Source: an uncultured virus (IMG/VR IMGVR_UViG_3300022555_000012) (Duplodnaviria; Heunggongvirae; Uroviricota; Caudoviricetes). From it: a stretch of DNA of 20,000 nt. The notes under the pieces were generated by a model that was not told the origin of the DNA, did not search any database, and saw nothing but the letters and a program-made list of their open reading frames with translations. A program made the position numbers and the translations under genes. Where the stretch lies: IMG/VR virus record IMGVR_UViG_3300022555_000012; one strand, given 5' to 3'. Below are positions 2,182 to 20,000 of this stretch, piece after piece (position 1 is the stretch's first letter; each line of letters starts with the position of its first letter).

Positions 2182-2874
2182 CTATTGTGCCTGTTGAGAT
2201 TCCCGGACACCTTTTTCCAGGAACTCAATTTCTTCCCTTAACTTCTCTATCATTATACTCCCATCTCGGAACCCAGTGAGAACATCTACGATCTTTTTCT
2301 TAATATTTTCATCCGAAGCATAAATTCTTATCAAAACACGGCCCCTGGCAATCAAATCCAAAGAAGCCTTCTTCCTGATTTCATCCTCACGACGCTGTTT
2401 AATCTTCTCCTTGTTCTCATACAAGAACTTCTCCACAACAAAATTACTACAGGAAAACTTGATAGTCGGAGGACAAAACTTTGGATTTTCACTTAAAAAT
2501 TGTTCAAATAGCCAAGCCAGATACTCATCCACATCGAACCCATTATCCGTCATCACCTTCACCAACTGGTTAATTAACCTTCCATCCACCCCGGTAATCG
2601 CCCGAGAATATTCCTGGTCTACCAGATGCAGATACCGATTTTTGAAGATTGATATAAACTTGCGACGATCTGCCGACATCCGGTGTTGAGGTGTCCCAGC
2701 AAATTTTGACTCAACTATCTGTCTTTCAATCGCCTGACCCAATAATTCAACATAATGGAATACTTCCGGAATATCTTCGATTCCAAATGGTTCCACGAGC
2801 GAATATACCACTCCCATAAACCGCTCCAAGCGATCTTCGGGAACTGCGTGTCTATCTACATTGTCCCGCTTCAT
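2182..2874 (-). CDS. Hypothetical protein (helical, possibly replication-associated)
   Basis: 230-aa ORF overlapping the upstream gene in an operon. No recognisable motif. Confidence 0.7.
   Translation of the reverse strand: MKRDNVDRHAVPEDRLERFMGVVYSLVEPFGIEDIPEVFHYVELLGQAIERQIVESKFAGTPQHRMSADRRKFISIFKNRYLHLVDQEYSRAITGVDGRLINQLVKVMTDNGFDVDEYLAWLFEQFLSENPKFCPPTIKFSCSNFVVEKFLYENKEKIKQRREDEIRKKASLDLIARGRVLIRIYASDENIKKKIVDVLTGFRDGSIMIEKLREEIEFLEKGVRESQQAQ
2249..2260 (-). promoter_or_regulatory. Putative promoter motif GAGTATAATGAT upstream of the uvsY/SSB genes
   Basis: Perfect TATAAT within a 12-mer also found at 9190-9201 and 13788-13799. Confidence 0.45.
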
Positions 2875-3310
2875 CTATATACCGTTTAATCCTTTTCACA
2901 ACATTGTCATCCTCGTCGAATACCAGGGGGAATAAGGCATCCACTTTGCCAGCCCTCCGGAACATCTCGACCGCTGCATCTCGAACAAACTTGTCGTCGG
3001 AACTCAAAAGTTTCTCAAGAACTTCCAATGCCCCTTCCTGCTTTCCTAAAATCGCCAGCAACTCTAGCAGAGTCTCCCGGTCCTCCGTGATACATGCCAC
3101 CTTAACCACTTCCTCAATAATACCCTTTTCAACCTGAATCCTTGCCGCCGCCATTCTCACTTCATTCGGATATACCGCTCTCAAGAATTCAAGAAGTTGT
3201 GACACATCCACCTTCTTACATTTAAGCACATCCCGGATATGGCTCTCATCCACTTTTCCCGTGGACCAATCCCGATAACACGCATCAACCGCTCTTTCTG
3301 GAAACCCCAT
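2852..3310 (-). CDS. HEAT-repeat-like helical protein
   Basis: LEKLLSSDDKFVRDAAVEMF, LVFDEDDNVVKR and YPNEVRMAAARI resemble HEAT/PBS-lyase repeats. GAGGGA SD. Confidence 0.6.
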   Translation of the reverse strand: MGFPERAVDACYRDWSTGKVDESHIRDVLKCKKVDVSQLLEFLRAVYPNEVRMAAARIQVEKGIIEEVVKVACITEDRETLLELLAILGKQEGALEVLEKLLSSDDKFVRDAAVEMFRRAGKVDALFPLVFDEDDNVVKRIKRYIDEAGQCR

Positions 3311-4307
3311 CTATTATCCCTCTCAAAAGTTCCTTGAATGACTCATCTATGTCGTCTTCAATGTTTGGAAACACATCTGCAATACTTTCTGCGTCCCGTG
3401 CTCCTACATTATACAAATAATCAGCCCTACCTTTTGTCATTCCTGGCAATTTACACAAATCTACCAAAGGTATTGATATCGCCTTCCGAACCATCAATTC
3501 CATATCATCGAAAAACATCCCCCGATTCCATCCGGCATCCTCTTTGTCCAACCGGATCAATGCTCTCTTAATCCGACCAATGTCCTCTTTCAACTCAAGC
3601 ATCTGATTTCTCATCTTGCCGACTGGCGGTCCTCCCATCAGACACCACCACAAAGTCGTCTGAATGATCGTCCCAGGCTCAGCATCGAGGCCCATCGGCA
3701 AAGCACTCTTATACTCTGACATTACAAACCTATGATCCCCAAAGTCCCCTTGACTCTTTCCCTGGTTACGAGTCCCCAATGCCCAGGCTATCGCCGCATT
3801 ATCGTTCTCCATCCCCAACTCAAACAACTTGGTGAAGTTATTCTTCCAGGATTGAATGTCTTCCGGGTGAAAGTAAAGGTCAGCCGCAATCATTCCCACC
3901 CTTGTCGCCCTCACCATGTCCCCAGGAACCCGTCTGATTGCCCCTACAACCTCCAATTTGTCAAAGAGCTTACCGAAGTTCACCTTTCGCCCCTGCGAGG
4001 CCGCAAGGCTCCTCTTGAACCACCTTATCGCAGTTATAACATCCTCAACCTTGCCCGAGACAATCTCAGGCATTAAATGGAACAACAAACCGTCTGTTTC
4101 CCCGAAAGATGACCGGACATCCATATTCTGTCCCTTTTCGAGTCCAGCCCGAATATCCTCAATCCTATCTTCCTCTACGATGACATTGGCTAACGCTGCT
4201 TCCCCACCGTGTTTTCTACCTGCCCGGCCTACCATCTGCTTGATTTCAAGGACTGGAACGGATTCCTTTCCCCTCTTTGTCCCTACAACTATGACAACAT
4301 CAGCCAT
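3285..4307 (-). CDS. Ski2/Hel308-like SF2 helicase, C-terminal half (motif VI, winged helix, ratchet, HhH)
   Basis: Starts MADVVIVVG...EIKQMVGRAGR (motif VI), then ATRVGMIAADLY (Hel308 T.lG...s.lY) and LCKLPGMTKGRADYLYNVG (HhH). GGAGG SD 9 nt upstream. Confidence 0.85.
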   Translation of the reverse strand: MADVVIVVGTKRGKESVPVLEIKQMVGRAGRKHGGEAALANVIVEEDRIEDIRAGLEKGQNMDVRSSFGETDGLLFHLMPEIVSGKVEDVITAIRWFKRSLAASQGRKVNFGKLFDKLEVVGAIRRVPGDMVRATRVGMIAADLYFHPEDIQSWKNNFTKLFELGMENDNAAIAWALGTRNQGKSQGDFGDHRFVMSEYKSALPMGLDAEPGTIIQTTLWWCLMGGPPVGKMRNQMLELKEDIGRIKRALIRLDKEDAGWNRGMFFDDMELMVRKAISIPLVDLCKLPGMTKGRADYLYNVGARDAESIADVFPNIEDDIDESFKELLRGIIDGVSRKSG

Positions 4308-4548
4308 TTATACATGCCTCCGCCAAAACCAATAATCCTTCTACTTCCGCCTTTGAAGTCGTTCCCATCAGAATCGGAACACTATAATCCATTATCTCCC
4401 GAGCAAATTCCTTGTTCGTGTTGACCATCTCGATAAGGTCGGACCACACATCGTTTTTCAATATGAAGTCCTGCTTTAAACATCCTTCCCTCATATCCTT
4501 CAAGAAAGGCTCCACATCGAAGTAATTTCTGTTTATTGGCCTATCCAA
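4300..4548 (-). CDS. Small hypothetical protein inserted between the two helicase halves
   Basis: 82 aa, TTG start with GGGAGAGG SD. In frame with the upstream helicase half across a single TAG. Its 3' end overlaps the start of the C-half. Confidence 0.55.
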   Translation of the reverse strand: MDRPINRNYFDVEPFLKDMREGCLKQDFILKNDVWSDLIEMVNTNKEFAREIMDYSVPILMGTTSKAEVEGLLVLAEACING

Positions 4549-4563
4549 GAAACCTCTCCCTGT

Positions 4564-5469
4564 CTATCCACCCATGTTGACCCCGGCCCCTAATGTGGAT
4601 GTAGCCACAACCACATTCAAACCAGATGTCATCTCATTGAACACCGTCTCAATTTTTCGCCTCTTTGCCCCAGACAAAGAAGCATTATGGAATACTGCCC
4701 GAACTCCTACTCTCCGCAGCCTCTTGACAATATCCCCTCCTGTAACCTTTGAATGAACGAAAACTAAGGTCTTCATGATTGAAGCCTTCTTCGCCAACTC
4801 AACAGCTTTGACGACCTTCTCCTCATAATCGTCTATGAGGTGATACTCCACTTTAACCTGGGTTGGCCGCCACGAACTCGTAATGCATTTGGTCTGTTTA
4901 CCATTGAGAGTTTTCAACCACTTTGCCAGTTCTATCGCATTCCCCATTGTGGCAGACAGAAACACAATCCGAACTGTCGGATTTAACTCTGTCAGTCTCA
5001 TTATTGCCGATTCCATTGCACCACCTCTCGGGTCATCCCCGATAATGTGTGCCTCATCAAATACGACACAATCCAAACTCTTAATCCAGGGTATCCACCA
5101 GTCCGACCTCGTCTTCATATCGAATGACTCTAAAGTCGCAACGATCAATCTTCCCCCGTCCCTGCCATCGTCATCACTGTCACTTGACCATAATATGGCC
5201 CCATACTTGCTTAGTTGTTCTTCGTCTGTCCATGACTTGAACTTCTCCGATGCCAAACTTTTGAACGGACAGACATATGCAACTCGGCTATCCTCCTTGA
5301 CTGACAGATGGTATCCAAAACAACATTCTGCCAACACAGTCTTGCCAACCGCCGTGGAGAAAGATATCACCAGATTCATATCCTTGTCCAAGAATGGAAT
5401 CGCGGCCGCTTGTGCCTCGTTATATTCGGGGAATGGGGGATGATACCATGGGTAATCAATCGTCCTCAC
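4564..5469 (-). CDS. Ski2/Hel308-like SF2 (DEAH) helicase, N-terminal half (Q motif to motif V)
   Basis: YNEAQ, STAVGKT, PFKSLASEK, DEAH, LSAT, FVHSK, FHNASL, VATSTLGAGVN. Stops right after motif V (GVNMGG*). Confidence 0.88.
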   Translation of the reverse strand: MRTIDYPWYHPPFPEYNEAQAAAIPFLDKDMNLVISFSTAVGKTVLAECCFGYHLSVKEDSRVAYVCPFKSLASEKFKSWTDEEQLSKYGAILWSSDSDDDGRDGGRLIVATLESFDMKTRSDWWIPWIKSLDCVVFDEAHIIGDDPRGGAMESAIMRLTELNPTVRIVFLSATMGNAIELAKWLKTLNGKQTKCITSSWRPTQVKVEYHLIDDYEEKVVKAVELAKKASIMKTLVFVHSKVTGGDIVKRLRRVGVRAVFHNASLSGAKRRKIETVFNEMTSGLNVVVATSTLGAGVNMGG

Positions 5470-5885
5470 AGCATCTCCGTCAATACCGACTCTACCTCTT
5501 CGATACTGTTCAATGATCCAAAGATCCTGGATTTGCCCTTCACAATCGAAACGACTTTGATCTTTCCCATTGCTCCAATAGCAATGGCGATCACCGTCTT
5601 CCCATCTTTCTTAAATTTATGGAGAACAGCATTATCTTTTGTCTCGATCTCCTGGTTGTATTTCCCATCAAGACTCTGCAAGAGATATTCCAACGGAGTT
5701 ACTGGTTTCGGCACCTCCAACTCATTGTTTTCCGGTTCAGAAGGTTTTTCTGCTTCCTCGATTTTGGCCTTGGTCCTCTTCTCACAATTGTCTGAGAGAG
5801 CACATCTAATACATTCCGGATCTGAAACAACCCATTTTCCGAAACATTTCGCATACTCATGCTTTACCCATAATTTCGTAGACAT
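5466..5885 (-). CDS. Hypothetical protein with an N-terminal Cys4 (Zn or Fe-S) motif
   Basis: CFGKWVVSDPECIRCALSDNC. Its ATG abuts the sigma-factor stop (TAA ATG) and its stop overlaps the helicase start (GTGA). Confidence 0.7.
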   Translation of the reverse strand: MSTKLWVKHEYAKCFGKWVVSDPECIRCALSDNCEKRTKAKIEEAEKPSEPENNELEVPKPVTPLEYLLQSLDGKYNQEIETKDNAVLHKFKKDGKTVIAIAIGAMGKIKVVSIVKGKSRIFGSLNSIEEVESVLTEML

Positions 5886-6827
5886 TTAACAACCCTCAAA
5901 TTGTTGCCTGAAAAACGGACGAACCACTTTGCTGTAAAATGTACGAGCCTGACTGTATTCCACGCCGGCCGCTTTCGCCGCATCCGAAACACAAACAGAA
6001 CTCGCGAACATAAATTCTCCCTGGTCAGGATCACCAAACATTTGCAGAATAAGCTCCTTATGTTTTGGATATTGTACCGCAAGACTACGAACTGAATCCA
6101 TCATTTCATGAGCCAATATGCTATTGCATTCACGGTGTTGGACTCCTGAGATCGGTAATGAAGGCCTATTCTCCAACGTGCTTTCCCCTTCATCATTTAA
6201 AATATGTCCTTCGTCAACGATAAGATTCTTTGTACGAAGCCCGACACGATATTTCTTACTCAAAACATTCTGGCAAACACGCCATGTCCAAGTCGTGAAC
6301 CGGCCTTTTTTCGGATCAAATTTACAGAGCTGTTTAAGGACTCGATACATACAATCCTGTGCGAGATCATCCACATCGTCCTGACAAGTTGTGGAGAACT
6401 TCAATGCCAATTGATAAACCATTTTTCGAATCGAAGAATATAACGCCGTGTTCACGTCAATACGATCATTTGGAGAAAGAATTTTCTTTCCCGTCATATC
6501 AAGAGCGACAGCCACGGCCATCTGTTCTTGAGTCATCGGCTTATCCGTCAAATCCATCTTGCCAGTGGCAAGAGTTTTTTTATCCAAATATGCCTTTCGG
6601 ACTTTATGAATAAAGTCGTTAATCATCCCAGTCTTGGTAAGACGCGGATATTCAGTGATAGTGTCTCGTTCAATTGGAACTGTATAACCAATGTATTGAC
6701 TTGTGATTTTACTGATTTGGTCGCGAACAGAAACCTGTTCGGAGTGAGAAACATCCAACACTACAACTTGCCCGTTTTGCATGATACGCCTCTTCTTTTC
6801 GTTTTTATTTATGTCGAATTTCGACAA
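5886..6827 (-). CDS. Phage-encoded sigma-70-family RNA polymerase sigma factor (true start may be ATG 6782)
   Basis: Region 2 signature DDLAQDCMYRVLKQLCKFDPKKGRFTTWTWRVCQN and a C-terminal region-4-like HTH VSDAAKAAGVEYSQARTFY. A GAGG SD precedes ATG 6782. Confidence 0.8.
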   Translation of the reverse strand: MSKFDINKNEKKRRIMQNGQVVVLDVSHSEQVSVRDQISKITSQYIGYTVPIERDTITEYPRLTKTGMINDFIHKVRKAYLDKKTLATGKMDLTDKPMTQEQMAVAVALDMTGKKILSPNDRIDVNTALYSSIRKMVYQLALKFSTTCQDDVDDLAQDCMYRVLKQLCKFDPKKGRFTTWTWRVCQNVLSKKYRVGLRTKNLIVDEGHILNDEGESTLENRPSLPISGVQHRECNSILAHEMMDSVRSLAVQYPKHKELILQMFGDPDQGEFMFASSVCVSDAAKAAGVEYSQARTFYSKVVRPFFRQQFEGC

Positions 6828-6858
6828 TTGGACTACCTGTCCTATTTATGGAAAAGGC

Positions 6859-6887
6859 AAAATACCGGAGAGTCGAAAATCCGTCAA
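6859..6887 (-). promoter_or_regulatory. Sigma70-type promoter for the sigma-factor operon
   Basis: TTGACG-N17-TATTTT with an A-rich upstream tract. Confidence 0.5.
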
Positions 6888-7966
6888 CATCTTTTTCTTT
6901 CAATTAATTTCAGTAAATCTGCATGACCTAATGTCTTCGGGTCACGACCTTTTGGGAGGAAGCATTTTTGGATAAGATTACCCGGAAATACCTCCTCAAG
7001 AGCTTTTGCTGAACGTGTCGTAATCGCCACCCCAGCATCATCCCCGTCAAACATTAAAATTATTCTTTTCGGACATAGCTTAGAGAGTAAAATCTGATGT
7101 GTCCCACTAATATATGCCCCAAGAATCGCTACCGCTGAGAAGCCCTCCTGTCTTAGTTTCATCACTTCCCGAGCACCCTCCGTCACAATGACAAAGTCTT
7201 CATTCTTTTGACAATCATCAAATCCGAACAAACAATCTGTTGATACGAAGTTCTCCGGGTAACGAACCTTTCGATACTCCTTAATATTCTGACTTGGATG
7301 TGCCTTCTGCCATTCTTCCTTTCCCAACAGATCTATGGCACTAAACCCAACAATCTTTCCCATCATGTAATACGGTATGATTACCCTATCAGAATAGAAT
7401 CCCCAGGTTCTCTCAAACACTTTAAATCGATCCACCGTCTCCCGGCTGATATTTGTCGGATATTTCTTACCAGGAGGATGAATAAAGAATTGATACCCCC
7501 GTTCAGACATCTTCCTTTTCAAAGTGTCCTTCTCTATCGCATCTAATCCCTTAATCGGATCGGCAGCCTTCAAACCTTCTTTTGTTTTATGGAGATTAGT
7601 CATTTTGAATTGGATTGCTGCCATCTCCAATTCTGCCATGTTTGCCCCAGCCGCCTTCCCCGTTACGAACCGAGCGGCCTCATCCGGCGAACATTTCAAC
7701 AGGCGACATACCGTCCAAATGATGTTGCTTCCACGAGCTTCCGTAAAACAGAATGTTTCCCCAGTCTCTGTATTGATCGTCCAATTTGGATCAGAAGATT
7801 TTCGACCGGTATAAATATGATGATCTGGACAAAACGCCCGAATCTCATTCCCCTTCTTTGGCTCTGAAATTACCCCGAGTTTCAAGAGAACGCTCTCCAG
7901 GTCAATGCTTGCCATTAACCAGGAGACATCTTTGTATCGATTCCGCTCTTTAACTCCGGCATCCAT
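6884..7966 (-). CDS. dnaG: DNA primase (Zn-binding domain + TOPRIM)
   Basis: CPDH...CFTE Zn-binding domain, RVIIP, and TOPRIM VTEG...AILG...MFDGDDAG...GRDP. Adjacent to the DnaB module. Confidence 0.88.
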   Translation of the reverse strand: MDAGVKERNRYKDVSWLMASIDLESVLLKLGVISEPKKGNEIRAFCPDHHIYTGRKSSDPNWTINTETGETFCFTEARGSNIIWTVCRLLKCSPDEAARFVTGKAAGANMAELEMAAIQFKMTNLHKTKEGLKAADPIKGLDAIEKDTLKRKMSERGYQFFIHPPGKKYPTNISRETVDRFKVFERTWGFYSDRVIIPYYMMGKIVGFSAIDLLGKEEWQKAHPSQNIKEYRKVRYPENFVSTDCLFGFDDCQKNEDFVIVTEGAREVMKLRQEGFSAVAILGAYISGTHQILLSKLCPKRIILMFDGDDAGVAITTRSAKALEEVFPGNLIQKCFLPKGRDPKTLGHADLLKLIERKRC

Positions 7967-7981
7967 AGGTAAATAGAGAAA

Positions 7982-8140
7982 TGAGGGTCATACAGGCGTC
8001 CCTTCCACCGGCTCAGAACATGCTCCTTACCAGATACTCAGGTGCCCCTCTTTACTCCAACATCTAAGAACTTATCTCAACAGAACCGAGGTGAGCCTGT
8101 TTATTGATTCGTAAATGATGCCAGACCTGTATGACCCTCA
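7982..8140 (-). ncRNA. Putative structured RNA or cis-element closed by a perfect 15-bp inverted repeat
   Basis: TGAGGGTCATACAGG (7982-7996) and CCTGTATGACCCTCA (8126-8140). Inner GGCTCA/TGAGCC helix plus further helices that need G-U pairs on the minus strand. Fills almost the entire intergenic gap. Confidence 0.5.
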
Positions 8141-8145
8141 AATTG

Positions 8146-9141
8146 TTATGCTGTCCGAATCCCCGTGTAATACTTACGACCCATTGACGGGTCCCAGGCC
8201 GTGAATTCTTCCGTCTTGTTCACATCCGACTCAATGAAGTCCATCGCGTCCACAACCTGAGCATCCGTGTTGAATGCCACATTCAGAACGATCGCTTCCT
8301 TCGTCATCGGCTGAACACAAACACCATCATGTGCCGTCACCGCGTGAAGAATCCTAACAACCGTCTCCTGATCCACCGACTTGTCGGCGTTCTTCAAGGC
8401 CGTCACAACCCGCTTCAAAGCCGTTGAAACACGACTCATTGTCAGATTGTTGATTCCCAGGAGTGTCCCCTTCTTAGTCATAACCGGCATACAATCCTTG
8501 AAACCAAACGCCTCAATCGCTCCGATTCGAGCCAACAATGCCGAAGCAAGCAAAACTGCCCGTTCCTGATCCGTCAGATTATACGACTCTGCCGCCTTAA
8601 GACTTGCCTCCGCCACACGAACCGTATTGGCAAGCAATCCACCCTGACAACCGTAATGAGGACGACCACTTCCCGGTGCCACAACGAAATTGGCAAAGAA
8701 AGTGGCATTCTGGTAGACCTCATCAACGATCATCCCAGCCGTCGGATTACCCGTCTTCACCTCGATTGCTTTCAATTCAGCCCGAATCTCGTCAAACCTG
8801 GACGCATTGGTCGTGGCACCAGAATCATCATAGATCGGAACATAATTGGAAAGATCCGCAGGAATCTCTGTCTTCTCGACATTCTTTGCGACGATACTCG
8901 GTGTCCCCTGATATTCATCAACGTGTGCCGCGATAAACACGAAACAACCCTTCTCGACCCCCGCTGCCTTGGCCCACAATTTCACATTCCTGGAACCAGA
9001 CTTGTCCCGGAGCATCAAATCCGTGTAGTCCTTCTTTTGGACTGTCTGCTTCACATATGCACTCTCGACGTAATAAACGCCTTCGAATGTGTCCCCAATA
9101 CCCTGATGCCTTATCAACGCGTGTTCAACTGCCTGTGTCAT
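8146..9141 (-). CDS. YhaM/Cbf1-like OB-fold + HD-domain protein with a degenerate HD site
   Basis: OB fold YTDLMLRDKSG...KLW...VDEYQG, then APG...HYGCQGGLLANT, LLARIG, ILHAVTAHDG, PMTKEA...DA, matching the YhaM layout with metal ligands substituted. Confidence 0.78.
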   Translation of the reverse strand: MTQAVEHALIRHQGIGDTFEGVYYVESAYVKQTVQKKDYTDLMLRDKSGSRNVKLWAKAAGVEKGCFVFIAAHVDEYQGTPSIVAKNVEKTEIPADLSNYVPIYDDSGATTNASRFDEIRAELKAIEVKTGNPTAGMIVDEVYQNATFFANFVVAPGSGRPHYGCQGGLLANTVRVAEASLKAAESYNLTDQERAVLLASALLARIGAIEAFGFKDCMPVMTKKGTLLGINNLTMSRVSTALKRVVTALKNADKSVDQETVVRILHAVTAHDGVCVQPMTKEAIVLNVAFNTDAQVVDAMDFIESDVNKTEEFTAWDPSMGRKYYTGIRTA

Positions 9142-9189
9142 ATTCTTTCTCCGTTTGTTTTTAATAATGCCATTTCGGCAAACTCATAA

Positions 9190-9201
9190 ATCATTATACA
9201 C
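9190..9201 (-). promoter_or_regulatory. Putative promoter motif GTGTATAATGAT overlapping the dnaB stop codon
   Basis: Second copy of the recurrent TATAAT-containing 12-mer, upstream of the YhaM-like gene. Confidence 0.45.
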
Positions 9202-10939
9202 CGGTCGGATTAAACTTTTTCAAATTAAGTCGCTCTAATGTGGTTTTCGGTCTTTGTTCCACCACTTGTTCAATCCTTTTTGCCTCAAGTTCCTCGGCTG
9301 TCTGAGGTGGAACCGGAGCATTCTTAAAAGATTCCTCAGCATCTTTCATCGCCTTTTCAATCTCTTGGTCCTCCTGGGATGATATCCCCGGAGCCTCGTC
9401 ATCCTCACCCTCTATCGCTCCATCAATCGCCTCTGCAAACTCCATAGACCTATCCCGCAGCCCCGTAGACGCCACCGGAAGAACCGGGACGACTGGTACT
9501 GCGGTCGGCTTTACTGTGGTTCCCAAGTCCTTTACAGCATCCTTTACGGCATCGTTTACTGCCTTCGCCTCCGCCGTTCCTGGTTTTTTCCTCTGATCGT
9601 CATTTTCCGTAACCCTTCCTATCTTGACTTCGTGCTTTGCGTTAAAATTGAACGGTGCACCATCTCGATTCTTTTTGGCATCACAAAGCCAGTAAACATC
9701 CCGAAGATAATCCGGAACAAGAACCTGAGTGTCATCCGTCCCCGCATAAGTGATAATCAAAAAGGTGTTCGCAACATGAATCTGTCCCTTTGACCCATAA
9801 ACGTCCATCTTTCCAGCACGTTTTCCTTGATTCGTCTTCTTTTCGACATCTGTTGCCGCCTGAGTCGGAGTAATAACAGGAACTCTCAACCATCTCGCCA
9901 ACTCCTTACAATCTGTCGCCGCCTTTGCCCGTTCATCGTTCTCTCCCCAGGCTTGTTGAATCGGCTTAACATGAGGTAAATGGTCAATGATGATCGCGTG
10001 AATCGGAATCCCCTTGTTCTCCAACAACCTGTATTGCTGTTCAATCAAAGAGACATCGGTAAAAGCAGCTACTTCCTTAATGAATATTTGCCCCCTACCA
10101 GCCGCCTTCATGTCCTCCTGCATATACTTCTGCCAACGCTCAATCTCTGCATCACTGATCTTGGCAAACTTAAAGTCCTGATAGGGTATCCCGGTGAAAA
10201 CGGCATCATACTTGTGTTGAACCTGTTCCAAATATTCCTCATTCGCAACATGCAACACATTCTTGGCCCCGTTCAAGGTTGTGATCCCCCTGGCGAGACT
10301 TCTACACATCGTAGATTTGCCTAATCCCGTGATGCCGGCAATCAAAGTCAATTCACCGGGAAACAATCCGCCAGTTTGCTCATCAAATGTTTTGAACCCG
10401 GTCTTAAGCCCCATATACTTCATCGGATTCTGCTGCTTGTCCCTAATCATCGCCAACCGAGGAGCAAAATCCGTCAATTCTGCCAGAGGCCGATCTTCCT
10501 TTTGCCCCCCAATCAACATCGCCTCTCGCTTCAAAAACGACACAGCATCTTGGATTTGACCTTTGGACAACATCTCAACGACACTCTCAGAAAGTCTTAA
10601 AGCATTCCTTCCTGTCTCTGCATCCTTCAATTTTCCCAAAATAGCTTCCGGGGCATCAAAAGATGTCACCCCATCAATCATATTCCATTCTCCGACATAA
10701 CTCGGAAAATCCTGATCGGACAATCTGGACCCCACTTCATACTCATAGACCGCCCGAGTCAATAGAGTGTTTGACTCCGATAGTGCCAATGATGCCAAAG
10801 CAAAAATGAGTTGCCTTGGAGTAGATGTGAAGTATTCCTCTCTGCCCTGGTGAAGATAAGTCCGAGCCATAATCACACTGCTCGTAATCGCCTTCAAATA
10901 GGCACGCTCAAGGTCCAAGGTATCATTAAAACTCGCCAT
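9194..10939 (-). CDS. dnaB: Replicative DNA helicase (DnaB family) with a long acidic C-terminal tail
   Basis: GLKTGFKTFDEQTGGLFPGELTLIAGITGLGKS (Walker A), IIIDHL, KELARWLRVPVITPTQ, KNRDG. Confidence 0.92.
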   Translation of the reverse strand: MASFNDTLDLERAYLKAITSSVIMARTYLHQGREEYFTSTPRQLIFALASLALSESNTLLTRAVYEYEVGSRLSDQDFPSYVGEWNMIDGVTSFDAPEAILGKLKDAETGRNALRLSESVVEMLSKGQIQDAVSFLKREAMLIGGQKEDRPLAELTDFAPRLAMIRDKQQNPMKYMGLKTGFKTFDEQTGGLFPGELTLIAGITGLGKSTMCRSLARGITTLNGAKNVLHVANEEYLEQVQHKYDAVFTGIPYQDFKFAKISDAEIERWQKYMQEDMKAAGRGQIFIKEVAAFTDVSLIEQQYRLLENKGIPIHAIIIDHLPHVKPIQQAWGENDERAKAATDCKELARWLRVPVITPTQAATDVEKKTNQGKRAGKMDVYGSKGQIHVANTFLIITYAGTDDTQVLVPDYLRDVYWLCDAKKNRDGAPFNFNAKHEVKIGRVTENDDQRKKPGTAEAKAVNDAVKDAVKDLGTTVKPTAVPVVPVLPVASTGLRDRSMEFAEAIDGAIEGEDDEAPGISSQEDQEIEKAMKDAEESFKNAPVPPQTAEELEAKRIEQVVEQRPKTTLERLNLKKFNPTGV

Positions 10940-10947
10940 CTTTTACC

Positions 10948-13785
10948 TCACAACAGTTTTGCCATGTCTTTCGGACCTAAACGCCTTAAGACTAAATCAT
11001 CCGTCTCATCACCAAGCACTTGAGCCGTAATCTTATTCTTGGAATAAATCACACCACGAATACGTTCCTCAATGGTGTCCTTACAAATGAAATTTACAAC
11101 GGTAACGACATTCCTTTGCCCGTTACGATGACAACGATCTTCTCTTTGAGCCATAATTGCCGGTGACCAGTTGTCATCATAATTGATAACATAGTCCGCC
11201 GATTGGAAGTTCAATCCCGCAGACATTGCCTCGCTACCCACCATCACGTCAATACTTTTATCCTCATTAAATTGTTTCTGCATCGTTGCCCGTTCAATGG
11301 GTTTCACCGATCCATCAATCCTCATATACTTGATTCCCAGCTTATCCAGTTCCAGGACAATCACATCCAACATTTCCGTATACTGACTGAAGATCAACGC
11401 CTTATGGCCATTCTGCATTACAACCTCGTCCAAAACTTCTTTGAAGGCATCCATCTTTGAGGAAGTCTTACAAGTGTCATCGATCATTGAAGGGTAGTTG
11501 CAGAACTGCTTACACCGGATAACTGCGACCACAGCCAGAGCATCCTCTGTAGCCACATGCCCCTGCGAAGCCAATTGCTTATAGATAGCCTGTTCCGCCG
11601 GGTCCATCGCCACAATCCGATTCTCATAAACCTTGTCAGGCAGATCCTTTAACACATCCCTCTTCAAACGCCTCAAAAAGAACGGTTGAATCTTCTGTGA
11701 TACTTCACCAATCTTTTTGTATCCAGTCACTCTTCCCCAGAAATCCGTCTCCACATATCTCTGAAAGAACCGAGTCTTAGACATCAACAATCCAGGGGCG
11801 ACAAACTGCATCAGACTGTGTAACTCCTCAAGCCGGCCGTCCATGGGTGTCCCGGTTAAGGCCATCCGACATCTTCCCCGTAATTCCTTTGTGTGTCTCG
11901 AACGAAGACTGCTGTGGTGCTTTATAGCCTGTGCCTCATCAATAATGATGATGTCCCATTCTCTCTTCCGGATTTCCGACAACATCCCCTGACGTTTCTT
12001 GGCCTTTGACAAGGTCTTTTCCCGCCTCAACCTCGCCTCGTCCGTTTCATCTTCCTTCTCTTTGAGTTTCTTTCCCCCGAAGAGATCTGCCGTCAATAAT
12101 TCATAGTTCACAACATGAAAGAACACATCAGTCCTCATCCACTGACCTATTCTCTCCTCCGGAGTCCCATCAACCACCACATACTTCTCATCAGTGAATT
12201 TCTCAATTTCCAATGGCCAATTAAATTTCAATGATGCCGGGGTAACAATCAGAGCCCTCTTTGCACCTGCGTTCGCCTTCATAAACAACGCAGTACCAAT
12301 GCCTTGCAATGTATTATGAGTGACAATACAATGTTCTGTAACATAGAGTTGATCTTGAGCCTCGACTGAGATGCAAATCGTCTTCTCCTGATTCTCCATC
12401 TTCTCTATTTTAGAGATATATCTTGCGGGCAGATATTTTGAACACACATCATGGCTGGCAACCTTACGCTTTAATCCAAATAGGCTCATTTCAGGAGGAA
12501 GTTTAATGTTGAGCCGATAAGCCAATCTCCCATATTTTTTAACTCCCTTATACTTATAAGAAGGCTTCTTCTTTATTCTTACCCTGGCAATCCCTCCCAA
12601 TGTTTGCACGATCTCCGAAACATCGTCACAAAGCTGTTTTGAGGTGGTGCAATATTCTGTCGAACAATCTCCCGCATTTCCATCCGTGTCCATCAATCCT
12701 CTTAACACCTTAAGCCGGACTTCGACAGAGCTATATTTGAACTCATTCGGAATAAACTTTTCCCAGGCTCTCTTACCACTAAGCCCCAATCTTTTTAATT
12801 CGCTTTCATATTCCGTAAAAGACTCAATGGACATATGATTCTTGGAGCATTTATGTGTTTTTCCACAAAGGACCATCTCCGAAAGATCTTCTTTCAACAT
12901 TTCCAATTTTACATACCCAGAAGAAGTAATGTGGCCGTCTCCAAGAAAGACCCCAAGTAGATAAGGATCAATTAAAACACTTTTTGTCTCAAATTCAATA
13001 GGATCTACAATCGGAATGCCCCACTTGTTATCCCCATTAGGCTTCTTGTAATAAGTCTTAAAACTATAAGTCTTCCCCTTATTGTATCCAGTTCCACATC
13101 TCTCCTCGAATCCTTCCTTGTCCAAGAGCTGACTCGTCGATAAAACAACCCCGTCTGTCTCTCGCTTTGTACTCTGATTGTTGTTTGAATAAACTTCCCA
13201 TAGATGAGCACCATCAACCACCGTTGAGAATCCATCACTGAATGTTACCTTATACACATCCTGTACCGGCTGGGGATACACCCCCGTTACTTTTGTTGGC
13301 TTACCATTCTTTCCAATTACGAAATCTCCCACCTTAATAGTCTCTATTTTTACCGGACCATTAGTTGTAAATACCTGGCTTCCAACCACTTTTCCTTTCC
13401 CTAATCCCATCTCGTCCGCCAGAAGTAATCCAACTCGATTGGTAGAAGCATACATCACTCCCAGACGCTGATAGTTATACAGAGACAACTTCAATCCAGG
13501 AATACGGAGACATACAGGAGTATCCTGTTTGGACATCCCTCTTAACTGATCCAACTTCGCTTCCTTATCAATTTGATTCTTAACCTGAAGCTCCATAGAG
13601 GCATCAACTGATAAGTCCGGTATTTTGTCGAGGAGACTTTCCAGGTTGGAAACGGTAAAGACAATCCTCCAGACCTTGTCTATTGCATCCCAGCAACCCC
13701 CAAGATCTGCGATAGCTGTCCGTTGCTCATAAGCACCCTGGACAACCAATGAATTATCAGATGGATCTACAAATAAAAAGGCCAT
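10948..13785 (-). CDS. SNF2-family helicase/ATPase containing an intein
   Basis: LYNYQ, LLADEMGLGK|T, PASLKFNW, IIDEAQ, LTGTP, LRRLK, LIFSQY, GLNFQ, QREDRCHRNGQ. Confidence 0.93.
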   Translation of the reverse strand: MAFLFVDPSDNSLVVQGAYEQRTAIADLGGCWDAIDKVWRIVFTVSNLESLLDKIPDLSVDASMELQVKNQIDKEAKLDQLRGMSKQDTPVCLRIPGLKLSLYNYQRLGVMYASTNRVGLLLADEMGLGKGKVVGSQVFTTNGPVKIETIKVGDFVIGKNGKPTKVTGVYPQPVQDVYKVTFSDGFSTVVDGAHLWEVYSNNNQSTKRETDGVVLSTSQLLDKEGFEERCGTGYNKGKTYSFKTYYKKPNGDNKWGIPIVDPIEFETKSVLIDPYLLGVFLGDGHITSSGYVKLEMLKEDLSEMVLCGKTHKCSKNHMSIESFTEYESELKRLGLSGKRAWEKFIPNEFKYSSVEVRLKVLRGLMDTDGNAGDCSTEYCTTSKQLCDDVSEIVQTLGGIARVRIKKKPSYKYKGVKKYGRLAYRLNIKLPPEMSLFGLKRKVASHDVCSKYLPARYISKIEKMENQEKTICISVEAQDQLYVTEHCIVTHNTLQGIGTALFMKANAGAKRALIVTPASLKFNWPLEIEKFTDEKYVVVDGTPEERIGQWMRTDVFFHVVNYELLTADLFGGKKLKEKEDETDEARLRREKTLSKAKKRQGMLSEIRKREWDIIIIDEAQAIKHHSSLRSRHTKELRGRCRMALTGTPMDGRLEELHSLMQFVAPGLLMSKTRFFQRYVETDFWGRVTGYKKIGEVSQKIQPFFLRRLKRDVLKDLPDKVYENRIVAMDPAEQAIYKQLASQGHVATEDALAVVAVIRCKQFCNYPSMIDDTCKTSSKMDAFKEVLDEVVMQNGHKALIFSQYTEMLDVIVLELDKLGIKYMRIDGSVKPIERATMQKQFNEDKSIDVMVGSEAMSAGLNFQSADYVINYDDNWSPAIMAQREDRCHRNGQRNVVTVVNFICKDTIEERIRGVIYSKNKITAQVLGDETDDLVLRRLGPKDMAKLL
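12313..13395 (-). mobile_element. Intein (361 aa) with LAGLIDADG homing endonuclease, inserted in the SNF2 Walker A (GLGK|T)
   Basis: Removing GKVVGSQVFT...HCIVTHN restores DEMGLGKTLQ. Terminal His-Asn with Thr at +1. LAGLIDADG motifs PYLLGVFLGDG and LRGLMDTDG. Confidence 0.92.
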
Positions 13786-16428: not shown

Positions 16429-19400
16429 TTAAGTTAGTATCCCCAAATTTTTCAAAACCCTCACAACTTGTTGAATGGTATAGCCGTCAATCGTGTCGGT
16501 TGATGTCAATGTTGTTCCACCATTTGAAACCAATGTTCCAGATGCGAAAGCTGTTGTCGGTCTTGCAATAGGTGTCGCCCCAAACAATCCCAATCCCCTA
16601 ATACTGGGATCTGTCTTGATAATCCAAGAAACATTGTCATTCACAATCAAGGCGTCTGTCGCCCCATTTCCCAAAGCAGAATTTATGATCAGCCCCTTAT
16701 TAAGATTTGACTGTCCTATGCCCTGTCCTATCGTTACGGCCCCATTGATCGTCAGAGTCTGGTTAGCTGGTGTTGAATTGAAGACACCATAGATCAATGC
16801 ATTGGTAGCCTCAAGAGCCGCAGAGGTCCTGTCCTGATTATCTATAATTAATAAATTTGAATTTGTTGTTTGATTATAACCCGCTGAATATCCTATCATT
16901 ACGTTAGTAGAGCCTGATGTTAATTTACTACCGGTATATGCTCCTATGCAGGTTACTCGTCCTGTTCCACCAAGTAAAGTGTTACCAGCTTGATGTCCAA
17001 ATAGTGAATTATTAGAAGTAGTTGCAATACTTATTCCAGCGTTATCCCCAAAAATAGTATTTTGTGTTCCTGATGTAATTCCCTTACCAGCATTTTCTCC
17101 CATTACAGTATTAAAATTACCAGTTAAAGCTGTTGGTGGTCCGCTTAATACACCCGCAATCCATATATTACTTGTTCCAGTAGAATTTCCTATTTTTAAA
17201 TAACCATTAGAATCCTGAGATAATCTTACCGTTGATCCATCACTTGCTAATACTTGAAATACATCGTTTGTTTGAGTTGCATTTTGGATAATCTTTGTTT
17301 GAACAATATCGCTTGAACCAGTAATGTTTAGTTTGCCTGTTCCCGCTGTTCCAATTGAAACTAAACCACTACTGTCAATTCTCATTCTTTCACCCATAAT
17401 AGAGCTGGAATTTCTGGTAAAAAATCCTAAATTTGATTGACCAGTAGCATGTGCTATCGTTTGTTGGGCGATTCCAGAACCAGCACTATGATCGGCGTTT
17501 ACAAATGTTAAACCGACCCAACAATTATTAGTTGTATTGGCATTTTCAATAGATAATCCAGTATTATTAATAGCTCCACTGAATGCTGCATTATTATCAT
17601 TTAATAATAAATTAAGTAATAAATTGGGAGAACTTGTTCCAATACCTACATTACCATTAGTATCAATTCGCATTTTTTCTGTTCTTCCTGCGTTATTAAC
17701 ACCTGTTGAAAATATTAAAGTTTGGTTCAAGTCAATTCTTGAGCCATTGGAAACATAATCGTGAATACTTGATATTGCCAAGAAACCTGTCACTTCAGCA
17801 TTACCAACAACATCCAATAATAAAGCAGGGCTAGCTGTTCCTATTCCTATTCTTCCGTTAGTCGAGTCAACTGTCAGAATATTAGTCGTGCCATCAGCTT
17901 TGTTTATTTTTAAAGCTGTGGTTGAGTCAACAGTAGGCCTGATATATGCACCACCCTTAAGGCTCAAATTACCAGAATTGTCTATGGTAGAAGTGATCGT
18001 AGTCCCATCACTGGCATAGATAGCAAAAGGAGAAGTTGTCTGGGTTGCATTAGCTAATATCTTAAACTGCACAGCATCACTTGAACCTGTAATAGTATTA
18101 GGTAAAGTCCAAGCCATAGATGTTCCAGAAAGAACTCCTTTTGAAGCACCTAATATATTAAAATTATGAGATAATCCCTCATAAGTGTTCTTACTTCCAT
18201 AAGTGGTTGCATAATTACCGAACTGGATTCTGCTTGTTTCACCTGTCAAAACCGAATCAACAACATTAACAATAGCTATTTCATTGGTTGTTCCTGCCAA
18301 TGGGACAAATCCTGTAACCCATCCAAGTGCATTATTAAGGGTCAAGTTGCTTCCCGCAAATGCTGTCGCTGTTGTTCCTGTTCCATCATTCAAATGGTAT
18401 CCTGCCAGCAACCCGCTATTCCAAGGGGCATTGGAGATATTACCAATCAATCCTGCACCACCATTATAAAGGGTTGTTATTTCCCCCGTTGATAATGCCC
18501 TGTTGAAAATCAATGGTTCGTCAATAACACAATTTTGTTGAAAGGTTGATCCATCGTTTCTTTTAAAAATAGCCAAATTAGTTGCAGTAACAGGTGCTAA
18601 ACCAGAAGCGGCAGTTACGCTTCCTTGACTAATCCCGTTAACATATAAAGTTGAGTTATTTGTTCCTGTTCCGCTACGAACAACTGTTATGAAATTCCAG
18701 CTTCCGTTTGTTGGTATACTATATCCAGAAAATGTTTGCCTGTCAGTATTTACCCGAATCATGTATTGATTACCACTAGATGCCCATATAGCATATCCAT
18801 TTAATCCGAATGTTAAATCTCCTATCTCAATCAATGGGGACTGATTGCCTGTCGCTCCTGTGCAGTTCAACCAGAAAGATATAGAGAAATCACCAGTGTT
18901 AGCTGTAACTGTACCTGTTGCATAATATGCTAACGCACCTGATTGCAAAGCATAACTCGCCCCACCCTGTTGATAGCTTTTATTGTAAAGATAAAATGCA
19001 TTGCCCGTTGAACTTCTCACCAACCTTGAATAATTTGTTGCTTCATCAGTCAATCTGAATTCAGGAGTTGTTTTTGTGACATTGAGATTACCAGTAAAAG
19101 GTTGGTTAGTTCCGTCAAGTTTGGCGAATATAGATGTATCCGCACCCATCCCTTGAGAACCCTGAAAACCCTGAGTGCCGCTTCCAGTGATACCTTGATT
19201 ACCCTGATTACCTTGTGCCCCACTCCCTACCGCACCCTGCCATCCTTGAGCACCCTGATTGCCTTGTGAACCCGAAGAACCGACATTACCTTGAAATCCT
19301 TGATTACCTTGGGAGCCCTGATTGCCCTGAGATCCAGATGAACCCACATTCCCTTGAGGCCCTTGTAATCCCTGATTACCATTAGCTCCTACATCACCTT

Positions 19401-20000
19401 GAGCCCCGGAAGAACCTGTCGATCCCTGATTCCCTTGGTTCCCTTGAAATCCCTGTGAGCCATCTAAACCAATGTATCCAGCGTTTCCTTGGAATCCTTG
19501 ATTACCCTGGTTTCCCTGATTTCCTTGATTTCCTTGATTTCCTTGATTACCCTGAGAACCGTCTAAACCAATATATCCGGCATCACCTTGAAATCCTTGA
19601 AATCCCTGCGAGCCCTGATTCCCTTGAAATCCCTGCGAGCCGATCAAACCCTGATTGCCTTGATTGCCTTGATAACCTTGATAACCCTGATAACCCTGAT
19701 ATCCCTGAAGACCGACATTACCCTGTGGTCCTTGATTACCTTGAAACCCTTGATTGCCATCAACTCCTATACTCCCCTGCCATCCTTGGGCACCCTGGCC
19801 TCCTTGGAGCCCTTGGTTCCCTTGGAACCCTTGACTACCTTGGTTTCCCTGATTGCCTTGAAAACCTTGGTTACCTTGACTACCAGAAGCTCCAACAAGT
19901 CCTTGGAGCCCTTGGAATCCCTGATTACCCTGTAAGCCGATATTACCCTGATTACCCTGAGAACCAGAATTACCTTGATGACCTGTAACTCCCTGGAATC
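16429..20000 (-). CDS. Tail-fibre/adhesin-like protein with collagen-like, LamG and fibre repeats; starts beyond the window
   Basis: Manual translation shows the frame stays open from 19647 to the window edge as G-X-Q triplets. LamG motifs (FSISFW...WNFITVV...LYVNG...IDE..IFNRALS), RIDxxGNVGIGT fibre repeats and N..xG..AG adhesin-like repeats. Confidence 0.85.
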   Translation of the reverse strand, partial: FQGVTGHQGNSGSQGNQGNIGLQGNQGFQGLQGLVGASGSQGNQGFQGNQGNQGSQGFQGNQGLQGGQGAQGWQGSIGVDGNQGFQGNQGPQGNVGLQGYQGYQGYQGYQGNQGNQGLIGSQGFQGNQGSQGFQGFQGDAGYIGLDGSQGNQGNQGNQGNQGNQGNQGFQGNAGYIGLDGSQGFQGNQGNQGSTGSSGAQGDVGANGNQGLQGPQGNVGSSGSQGNQGSQGNQGFQGNVGSSGSQGNQGAQGWQGAVGSGAQGNQGNQGITGSGTQGFQGSQGMGADTSIFAKLDGTNQPFTGNLNVTKTTPEFRLTDEATNYSRLVRSSTGNAFYLYNKSYQQGGASYALQSGALAYYATGTVTANTGDFSISFWLNCTGATGNQSPLIEIGDLTFGLNGYAIWASSGNQYMIRVNTDRQTFSGYSIPTNGSWNFITVVRSGTGTNNSTLYVNGISQGSVTAASGLAPVTATNLAIFKRNDGSTFQQNCVIDEPLIFNRALSTGEITTLYNGGAGLIGNISNAPWNSGLLAGYHLNDGTGTTATAFAGSNLTLNNALGWVTGFVPLAGTTNEIAIVNVVDSVLTGETSRIQFGNYATTYGSKNTYEGLSHNFNILGASKGVLSGTSMAWTLPNTITGSSDAVQFKILANATQTTSPFAIYASDGTTITSTIDNSGNLSLKGGAYIRPTVDSTTALKINKADGTTNILTVDSTNGRIGIGTASPALLLDVVGNAEVTGFLAISSIHDYVSNGSRIDLNQTLIFSTGVNNAGRTEKMRIDTNGNVGIGTSSPNLLLNLLLNDNNAAFSGAINNTGLSIENANTTNNCWVGLTFVNADHSAGSGIAQQTIAHATGQSNLGFFTRNSSSIMGERMRIDSSGLVSIGTAGTGKLNITGSSDIVQTKIIQNATQTNDVFQVLASDGSTVRLSQDSNGYLKIGNSTGTSNIWIAGVLSGPPTALTGNFNTVMGENAGKGITSGTQNTIFGDNAGISIATTSNNSLFGHQAGNTLLGGTGRVTCIGAYTGSKLTSGSTNVMIGYSAGYNQTTNSNLLIIDNQDRTSAALEATNALIYGVFNSTPANQTLTINGAVTIGQGIGQSNLNKGLIINSALGNGATDALIVNDNVSWIIKTDPSIRGLGLFGATPIARPTTAFASGTLVSNGGTTLTSTDTIDGYTIQQVVRVLKNLGILT
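19148..20000 (-). repeat. Collagen-like Gly-X-Y (mostly Gly-X-Gln) coding repeat with a 9-nt period
   Basis: Continuous GNQ/GFQ/GSQ/GYQ triplets, with the GYIGLDGSQG block duplicated. Confidence 0.93.

Follow-up and report, generated by a model that had tools for sequence, protein, structure and literature searches.

A Hel308-like helicase gene in two pieces, cut between motifs V and VI around a slot of variable gene content, in an uncultured freshwater phage and its relatives

Superfamily 2 (SF2) helicases are, to our knowledge, almost always single chains, because their ATP site is shared by two RecA-like domains, and the locus described here raises the question of how a gene for such an enzyme comes to be cut through the second of these domains and whether its two products still form one motor. 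The locus lies in a 20,000-nt stretch of DNA from an uncultured Caudoviricetes virus, a freshwater phage (IMG/VR record IMGVR_UViG_3300022555_000012; the whole stretch is hereafter called the window), where open reading frame (ORF) calls place the N-terminal part of a Hel308-like helicase (N-half), an ORF of 82 aa, and the helicase's C-terminal part (C-half) in tight series on the minus strand (Table 1). An initial annotation, made from the sequence alone, had described a helicase split between motifs V and VI with essentially nothing lost and had proposed a natural two-subunit enzyme, possibly assembled or controlled by the 82-aa protein, an unrecognized intron or recoding element, or a substrate for protein ligation. 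The explanation favored here, and regarded as probable, is an ancient fission in place, with a slot of varying gene content where the gene was cut and a Hel308-like helicase of two non-covalently joined subunits as its product.

The two ORFs are successive parts of one helicase. The N-half matches the Pfam family DEAD (2.9e-19) and the family Helicase_C over profile positions 5-81 of 110 only, and the Helicase_C domain is incomplete on one chain, with motif VI (QMVGRAGR) lying on the separate C-half. The profile phrog_6819 (Holliday junction branch migration helicase, 645 positions) is covered consecutively by the N-half (20-302) and the C-half (322-460), so nothing substantial is missing between them, which bears out the split as first described. 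In the huge-phage record LR756511, a homologue of 675 aa is continuous and has the sequence ...IIATSTLAWGLNLPARRVVILGVHRG...QMVGRAGR, and compared with it the window helicase has about one extra residue at the break. The best solved matches of both halves are archaeal Hel308 enzymes (9b15, 2p6r), and the C-half profile aligns with residues 341-488 and 616-665 (the helix-hairpin-helix, HhH) of 9b15 and also with 2p6r, 2zj2, and 2va8. These archaeal Hel308/Hjm proteins share with the window helicase motifs I-VI and the order of first and second RecA-like domains (RecA1 and RecA2), winged helix, ratchet, and HhH, but are single polypeptides of ∼700 aa, whereas the window helicase consists of two chains. 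The NCBIfam Hel308 equivalog NF040935 (cut-off 1200 bits) is not reached by the N-half (104.1 bits) or the C-half (27.2 bits), and even the continuous relative in locus L001 scores just 208 bits on it. By these sequence comparisons, the window helicase is best described as a divergent phage branch of the Hel308 family and not as an orthologue.

The break had been placed "precisely between motifs V and VI"; this is right as to order, and the position can be corrected to the very end of the motif V loop, with the next core β-strand following directly and motif VI ∼20 residues further on. The continuous relative P0076 (659 aa) was modeled with AlphaFold2 (mean predicted local distance difference test score, pLDDT, 84.1); in this model, the motif V loop comprises residues 301-311, a block with a pLDDT of 57, the lowest in RecA2, and the break falls where the loop ends, immediately before the core strand 314-318. 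Since the break falls just before a core strand, the C-half would have to donate this strand to the RecA2 sheet of the N-half. The insert between the halves is likewise real, but its length from the N-half stop to the C-half ATG is 256 nt (4308-4563) and not the 265 nt first reported. The TGA stop of the 82-aa ORF overlaps the C-half ATG as ATGGCTGA, giving an 8-nt overlap, and the good GGAGG Shine-Dalgarno sequence reported for the C-half is present (Table 1). At the other end of the string, the stop of an upstream 139-aa ORF (5466-5468) overlaps the GTG of the N-half (5469-5467) by 2 nt. A promoter and terminator scan of 2800-7000 found no terminator-like site between the halves and was otherwise uninformative, the promoter and terminator counts being those expected from shuffled sequence. 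Co-transcription of the two halves is predicted.

The same cut is found in relatives of the window. Ten distinct IMG/VR loci with relatives of the C-half were compared, and nine of them are split (L002, L003, L004, and L008 to L013), with 32-68% identity in the C-half and 44-76% in the N-half. The cut falls at the same residue in all nine, with GVN[MVIL]G(G/N/SSG)-stop as the end of the N-half and M[AS]D..V[IV]V as the start of the C-half; the tenth locus, L014 (C-half identity 28%), is continuous. The gene is also continuous in the INPHARED phage records LR756511 and Microcystis phage Mvi-JY20, and no split form was found among cultured phages in the INPHARED copy searched. An exhaustive HMMER search with the C-half against 1.84 billion representatives at 50% identity gave 472 matches at E ≤ 0.001. 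Among the best 150 of these 472, 70 are stand-alone C-halves in which residue 1-6 aligns to query residue 1-8, and 37 start with MAD, while the rest comprise 51 continuous or longer proteins, 5 that start from motif VI, 9 fragments, and 15 others, mostly truncated. A word-index search returned 61 clusters of near-length C-halves at E ≤ 1e-10, which are named in their sources "hypothetical protein" or "replicative superfamily II helicase," one of them on a contig of 318,775 bp. A scan of genome_contigs by N-half alignment found no split form as a prophage and no host clue, returning only distant cellular Hel308-like genes of 26-35% identity (Micrarchaeota, Dehalococcoidia, and others).

The split forms fall into one clade. 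A FastTree phylogeny of 129 rows was built from the 150 proteins without 22 that covered fewer than 260 residues or carried inteins, and a branch with a support of 99 divides it into a side of 69 rows (61 split, 5 starting at motif VI, 2 fragments, and 1 continuous) and a side of 60 rows (50 continuous, 9 unclassified, and 1 split), with a minimum of three changes between the split and continuous states. On 56 rows drawn at random, a quick IQ-TREE run under a site-mixture model recovered the same bipartition (SH-like approximate likelihood ratio test support of 97), also with three changes. To judge from these sequences, the split is old and clade-wide and not a recent insertion; the close relatives are all split, and none of the pattern expected of a recent insertion into an otherwise continuous gene was found. 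The check on homologues proposed at the outset therefore has two outcomes, the split point being conserved and the intervening 82-aa ORF not, as six of the nine split relatives are without it. Within the split clade, the continuous P0076, whose junction reads ...GVNLSCDRAIIV..., is placed as sister to P0073 (local support 78) and is possibly a secondary re-fusion of the halves or a misplacement in the tree. In addition, five proteins of the split clade (P0027, P0039, P0055, P0064, and P0158) start exactly at motif VI (MAGRAGR or MAGRCGR), which is the insertion point of the motif VI inteins described below, and may represent a second fracture site or artefacts of gene calling.

Both halves are under strong purifying selection. 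Where the synonymous rate could be estimated, the ratio of non-synonymous to synonymous substitution rates (dN/dS) is 0.05-0.06 for the N-half and 0.09-0.19 for the C-half, compared with 0.07 for the glycosylase gene nested between the halves in relatives and 0.36 for the small ORF. Motifs I (GKT), II (DEAH), III (SAT), and V (TSTL.AGVN) do not vary among 8 N-halves, and residues Q24, G27, R28, and R31 of motif VI are invariant in 28 stand-alone C-halves. In SF2 helicases, motif VI acts only together with the ATP site formed by motifs I and II. The strict conservation of motif VI on a polypeptide separate from that site argues more strongly than any other indirect evidence for reassembly of the halves, and together with the shared cut in nine of nine split relatives and 70 of the best 150 representatives, in one clade, it upholds the proposal of a natural two-subunit helicase. 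Under the favored explanation, a Hel308-like SF2 helicase gene would at some remote time have become two genes by a split in place. RecA1 and most of RecA2 are on the N-half, whereas the C-half supplies the next RecA2 strand, the arginine-bearing motif VI, and then the domains of winged-helix, ratchet, and HhH type. Both polypeptides would be made from one tightly packed and probably translationally coupled gene string and would associate non-covalently by strand complementation in the RecA2 sheet, giving one active helicase in which RNA splicing, ribosome bypassing, and protein ligation play no part. The content of the slot between the two genes varies, with a uracil-DNA glycosylase (UDG) gene, with or without small ORFs, in the split relatives and the 82-aa gene alone in the window, where it would be a lineage-specific passenger or accessory. 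The physical reassembly of the halves and their activity are predictions from sequence conservation.

A gene of the UDG superfamily, family 4, encoding 190-212 aa, lies between the halves in all nine split relatives (Table 1). The Pfam family PF03167 matches the nested genes with 96.3 and 90.9 bits (cut-off 24.3), and in each of four records searched (G001 to G004), it matches exactly one UDG, the nested one. The NCBIfam model TIGR00758 (cut-off 125.3) is reached by the nested gene of L009 (125.8), those of L011 (123.9) and L004 (108.7) falling slightly below, and the next-best models for the nested gene are archaeal type-4 UDG and UdgX. Across the window and its relatives, the gap between the halves ranges from 256 to 1215 nt. 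The window is the exception, its slot holding the 82-aa ORF only, and no UDG was found among the ORFs of the 20-kb window examined by Pfam and profile matches. By parsimony over the loci compared, the UDG is inferred to be ancestral in the slot, the small ORF to have been gained in the common ancestor of the window, L002, and L004, and the UDG to have been lost from the slot later in the lineage of the window. The idea that the split arose through the later break-up of a helicase with a UDG domain inside it was considered and rejected, as PF03167 matches none of the 51 continuous relatives. A further family of Trp-rich ORFs occurs between the UDG gene and the C-half, in L002 (3613-4008, 131 aa) and in L008 (4573-5001, 142 aa), with 31% identity between the two (E 4e-22) and no Pfam or PHROG match.

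The 82-aa ORF has 45-46% identity to ORFs in the same place in L002, L003, and L004, where the homologue has 92 aa. A search of 5.8 billion proteins found 10 clusters of this family, of 77-89 aa, and the family is absent from L008 to L013, which have the UDG gene in the slot instead. The 82-aa ORF is a real gene restricted to a small subclade. Its product is acidic by sequence count (15 Asp and Glu against 9 Lys and Arg), and its AlphaFold2 model is confident and all-helical (pLDDT 90.9). The protein has no match in Pfam, PHROG, or NCBIfam. The search of its model against the PDB with Foldseek gave no usable match (best E-value 0.84), and the best hit of a wide VIA-align search was to a part of a BREX BrxC-BrxB chain with a Z of 5.2, in a range that is common for helical bundles. 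Similarly, the ESM Atlas returned unnamed clusters at 0.91-0.92 and HEAT-repeat leads at 0.89, below the bar of the tool, and comparison of the protein with the HEAT-repeat ORF downstream of the C-half by hhalign was negative (probability 0.12). The absence of the gene from most split relatives means that it is not a general assembly factor, and the suggestion that the 82-aa protein assembles or controls the split helicase in general does not hold; it may be a lineage-specific accessory.

Several points weigh against the explanation by ancient fission and reassembly. The argument for reassembly is drawn from conservation, and the stretch was found in DNA runs and in no RNA run. Synonymous sites are saturated in most pairs, so that the dN/dS values come from few comparisons, and the trees are built on ∼320 columns of divergent sequences with many long branches. 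The continuous P0076 lies inside the split clade and the split-like P0087 inside the continuous clade, with local support of 78 and 70, which means either that the history includes at least three changes or that these placements are wrong. Lastly, the absence of UDG is a result for the 20-kb window of the phage genome.

Other explanations differ in how well they survive these data. The most elaborate supposes that the cut is adaptive and more than merely tolerated and that, in a whole clade of freshwater phages, the nested gene product, normally a family-4 UDG and in the window the 82-aa helical protein, is co-translated with the halves and docks at the re-formed RecA2 domain, making a composite repair machine; this is judged unlikely. 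If it were true, Hel308-type unwinding would be linked in the machine to base excision or a different activity, and the slot would be a site for exchangeable modules inside the gene of a motor protein. Another unlikely reading gives the split helicase of this lineage a third subunit, the 82-aa protein, with a role in its assembly or regulation that perhaps replaces one of the UDG. It would fit a real conserved gene that sits precisely in the gap and whose translation is coupled to that of the C-half, a confident compact helical fold, the retention of the 82-aa gene where the UDG is gone, and a slot that is never without at least one gene. Against it, the family is known from those 10 clusters only and is missing from L008 to L013, whose halves are equally conserved, its dN/dS of 0.36 is far looser than that of the halves, and it belongs to no recognizable family or fold.

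An improbable reading is that the two ORFs no longer cooperate, either because the helicase is decaying or because each half now serves a function of its own. Damage is what one would expect from cutting the core sheet of RecA2, but this reading is at odds with a cut that is kept down to ∼25-30% identity, with ORFs that are both intact and adjacent in every split relative, and with the low dN/dS of both halves (0.05-0.19). It would also leave the invariance of motifs I-V and of motif VI on two chains hard to explain without one shared ATPase site.

It is very improbable that the halves are rejoined, be it by an unrecognized intron, by ribosomes that bypass the gap or read through the TAG, or by ligation of the proteins at the Gly-Gly end. 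Removal of the insert would give a helicase of consensus length, and the 82-aa ORF is, as first noted, in the frame of the N-half across one TAG (both in frame 3). The end of the N-half, GGA-TAG (4564-4569, minus strand), also resembles the take-off site of T4 gene 60, which has the same codon pair. Bypassing in T4 gene 60 needs a take-off at GGA followed by UAG, a gap of 50 nt, and a matching landing codon. The gap in the window and its relatives is, by contrast, 256-1215 nt long and protein-coding, the C-half has its own start, and GGA-TAG occurs in the window alone, the relatives having GGG-TGA, AAT-TGA, and similar pairs; with no conservation and no matching landing site, the likeness is judged coincidental. 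More generally, both the stops (TAG, TGA, and TAA) and the last residues (G, GG, GN, and GSSG) of the N-half vary among relatives, which also disposes of the recoding element, as does the fact that every C-half has its own ATG or GTG. In the window, a TAA directly before the ATG closes the frame of the C-half, and all three stop codons are in use, which speaks against readthrough. An alternative genetic code was rejected for similar reasons, since TAA, TAG, and TGA all end ORFs of the window and readthrough of the TAG would leave the C-half in another frame. For an intron, no Rfam family was found on 3900-5000 even at E ≤ 10, barring one chance-level tRNA-like match on the other strand, in a test that is blind to intron classes absent from Rfam; the RNA fold of the insert is no more stable than shuffled sequences (z-score -0.71), and the gap is filled by conserved protein-coding genes with their own starts. 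Protein ligation, suggested by the Gly-Gly end, finds no intein or Hint domain in either half (Pfam), and the Gly-Gly end itself is not conserved.

An assembly chimera or sequencing error, an alternative that the initial annotation had raised and that any metagenomic DNA invites, has a negligible chance of having made the split, because contigs from three studies bridge the junctions without a difference and nine other contigs have the same architecture. The metagenome contig L015, which may come from the same sample, matches the window at 100% identity along 10,548 bp that take in the split. The stretch is present in six DNA runs from three freshwater or lake metagenome studies, and Logan contigs from four of the six runs were compared with 3200-5600. 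Both junctions are bridged by X4 record 3 (4225-5600) and X5 record 5 (3939-4694), one junction each by X6 records 10 and 11, and X1, possibly the source, spans 3200-5600; all these contigs have zero differences and no alternative joint, and the split is real.

As to what made the cut, this stretch of the helicase gene is a repeated target of selfish elements in the relatives, where inteins occur in motifs V and VI. Many of the 51 continuous relatives carry inteins, and in at least five of them (P0112, P0135, P0144, P0149, and P0157), the Helicase_C match stops at profile position 78 and an intein follows. Fragments P0110 and P0122 (...HN|CN[LM]PAR) belong to the same recurrent motif V intein site (...WG | intein ...HN | CN[LM]PAR), which lies 3-4 residues upstream of the cut of the split clade. 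Two stand-alone C-halves, P0054 (764 aa) and P0067 (742 aa), start with MADVVIV and MSDHVII, respectively, and carry a LAGLIDADG intein in motif VI (KQM|C...THN|CGR), and this gene has therefore been both fractured and invaded by inteins. The inteins of relatives are in frame and splice out, in contrast to the split in the window, which has stop and start codons and no intein remnants. No recognizable homing endonuclease was found in the slot, the 82-aa ORF and the small ORFs of relatives having no match in Pfam, PHROG, or NCBIfam and the UDG being the sole nested gene that could be recognized. By analogy with known systems, an ancient free-standing mobile gene may plausibly have made the cut, and the UDG may afterwards have come to occupy or keep the slot. 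Elsewhere in the window, a 945-aa SNF2-like helicase ORF (10948-13785, minus strand), with the SNF2 domain match spanning residues 107-767, carries an intein with LAGLIDADG_3 (356-410) and Hom_end_hint (137-181) matches; in the translation, motif I is broken by this intein (DEMGLGK | GKVVGS...IVTHN | TLQGIG), which apparently starts with Gly and not with Cys or Ser.

Genes in pieces without inteins are known among phage enzymes of DNA metabolism, and in this respect the locus is known in kind. In Aeromonas phage Aeh1, nrdA is split into NrdA-a and NrdA-b by the homing endonuclease gene mobE, and the case resembles the window in that an essential enzyme of DNA metabolism is cut in place, with adjacent genes and both pieces kept (Crona et al. 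2011, PMC3045599). Function is restored there non-covalently and without RNA or protein splicing, as is predicted for the window, and the pieces in the split clade are likewise adjacent, intact, and conserved in nine of nine split relatives. The Aeh1 case has a recognizable inserted homing endonuclease and new tails at the break that are essential for assembly, unlike the clade of the window, which has a UDG or the 82-aa ORF in the slot and at most one or two extra residues at the break; the split described here is also clade-wide and old and not confined to one phage. Similarly, a study of marine phage metagenomes describes "fractured genes" in which an invader brings an upstream stop and a downstream Met with a coding overlap, comparable to that between the 82-aa ORF and the C-half, and the hosts are replication and repair enzymes including the helicase gp41 (Dassa et al. 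2009, PMC2677866). Fractured genes carry the two halves of a split intein, by which the protein is ligated, with a homing endonuclease gene in between, unlike the halves of the window, which have no intein sequence and abut at homologous residues. A third case is the T4 topoisomerase gp39/gp60, with the translational bypass of gene 60 (10.1101/2022.08.31.505936).

Three features appear to be new, namely the enzyme and the site of the cut (RecA2 of an SF2 helicase, after motif V and before motif VI), how deeply and broadly the cut is conserved, and the constant nesting of a UDG with a UDG-less variant, in the window, carrying the 82-aa gene. No published description of the arrangement was found in full-text searches whose coverage leaves out most subscription journals. 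In T4 gp39/gp60, the gene for an enzyme subunit has been interrupted through the activity of a mobile element. At least 70 clusters at 50% identity retain this natural and evolutionarily stable cut through RecA2, which shows where a motor core tolerates fission and provides many ready-made sequence pairs for studying and engineering split helicases. For annotation, it is relevant that stand-alone halves could easily be flagged as pseudogenes. The nesting of a UDG at the break, with intein sites nearby, also makes the locus a good case for the fracture of essential phage genes by selfish or accessory genes and the adaptation of the host gene.

Table 1. Features of the split helicase gene string in the window and order of genes between the halves in split relatives.
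Feature	Coordinates	Strand	Details
Upstream ORF, 139 aa	5466..5885	-	Same gene string; no Pfam or PHROG family match
Helicase N-half, 301 aa	5469..4564	-	GTG start; ends ...VATSTLGAGVNMGG (GVNMGG), then TAG
N-half content			RecA1 and most of RecA2; motifs I (GKT), II (DEAH), III (SAT) to V (TSTLGAGVN)
Spacer, 15 nt	4549..4563	-	N-half stop to TTG of 82-aa ORF; contains Shine-Dalgarno-like GGGAGAGG
82-aa ORF	4548..4300	-	TTG start; ends ...ACING; stop TGA
GGAGG Shine-Dalgarno	4317..4321	-	9 nt 5' of C-half ATG, within 82-aa ORF
Helicase C-half, 340 aa	4307..3285	-	Begins MADVVIVVGTKRGKESVPVLEIKQMVGRAGR (MADVVIVVG)
C-half content			RecA2 core β-strand (ADVVIVVG), motif VI (QMVGRAGR), then winged-helix, ratchet, and helix-hairpin-helix domains
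Downstream HEAT-repeat ORF, 152 aa	2852..3310	-	Pfam HEAT_2; 26-nt overlap with C-half end
Gene order, L009, L010, L011			N-half / UDG / C-half
Gene order, L013			N-half / UDG / C-half; 36-aa ORF listed before C-half
Gene order, L012			N-half / 85-aa ORF / UDG / C-half
Gene order, L008			N-half / UDG / 142-aa ORF / C-half
Gene order, L004			N-half / UDG / 92-aa ORF / C-half
Gene order, L002, L003			N-half / UDG / 92-aa ORF / 131-aa ORF / C-half

The surroundings of the gene string place the split helicase in a replication module, given that its neighbors include a sigma-70 region 2 protein, a Toprim primase, and a DnaB-like helicase. The sigma-70 region 2 protein (313 aa; 5886-6827, minus strand) lies directly upstream of the string, and beyond its gene, at 6884-10939 on the same strand, are the Toprim primase, an unassigned 331-aa ORF, and the DnaB-like helicase. 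On the other side, a homologue of the HEAT-repeat ORF is also found 3' of the C-half in L002 and L004. Farther off in the window, a 1072-aa ORF (16429-19647, minus strand), whose open frame runs on to the window edge, has strong matches to tail-fibre and collagen-like minor tail PHROG families (e.g., phrog_5073, 1.6e-34).

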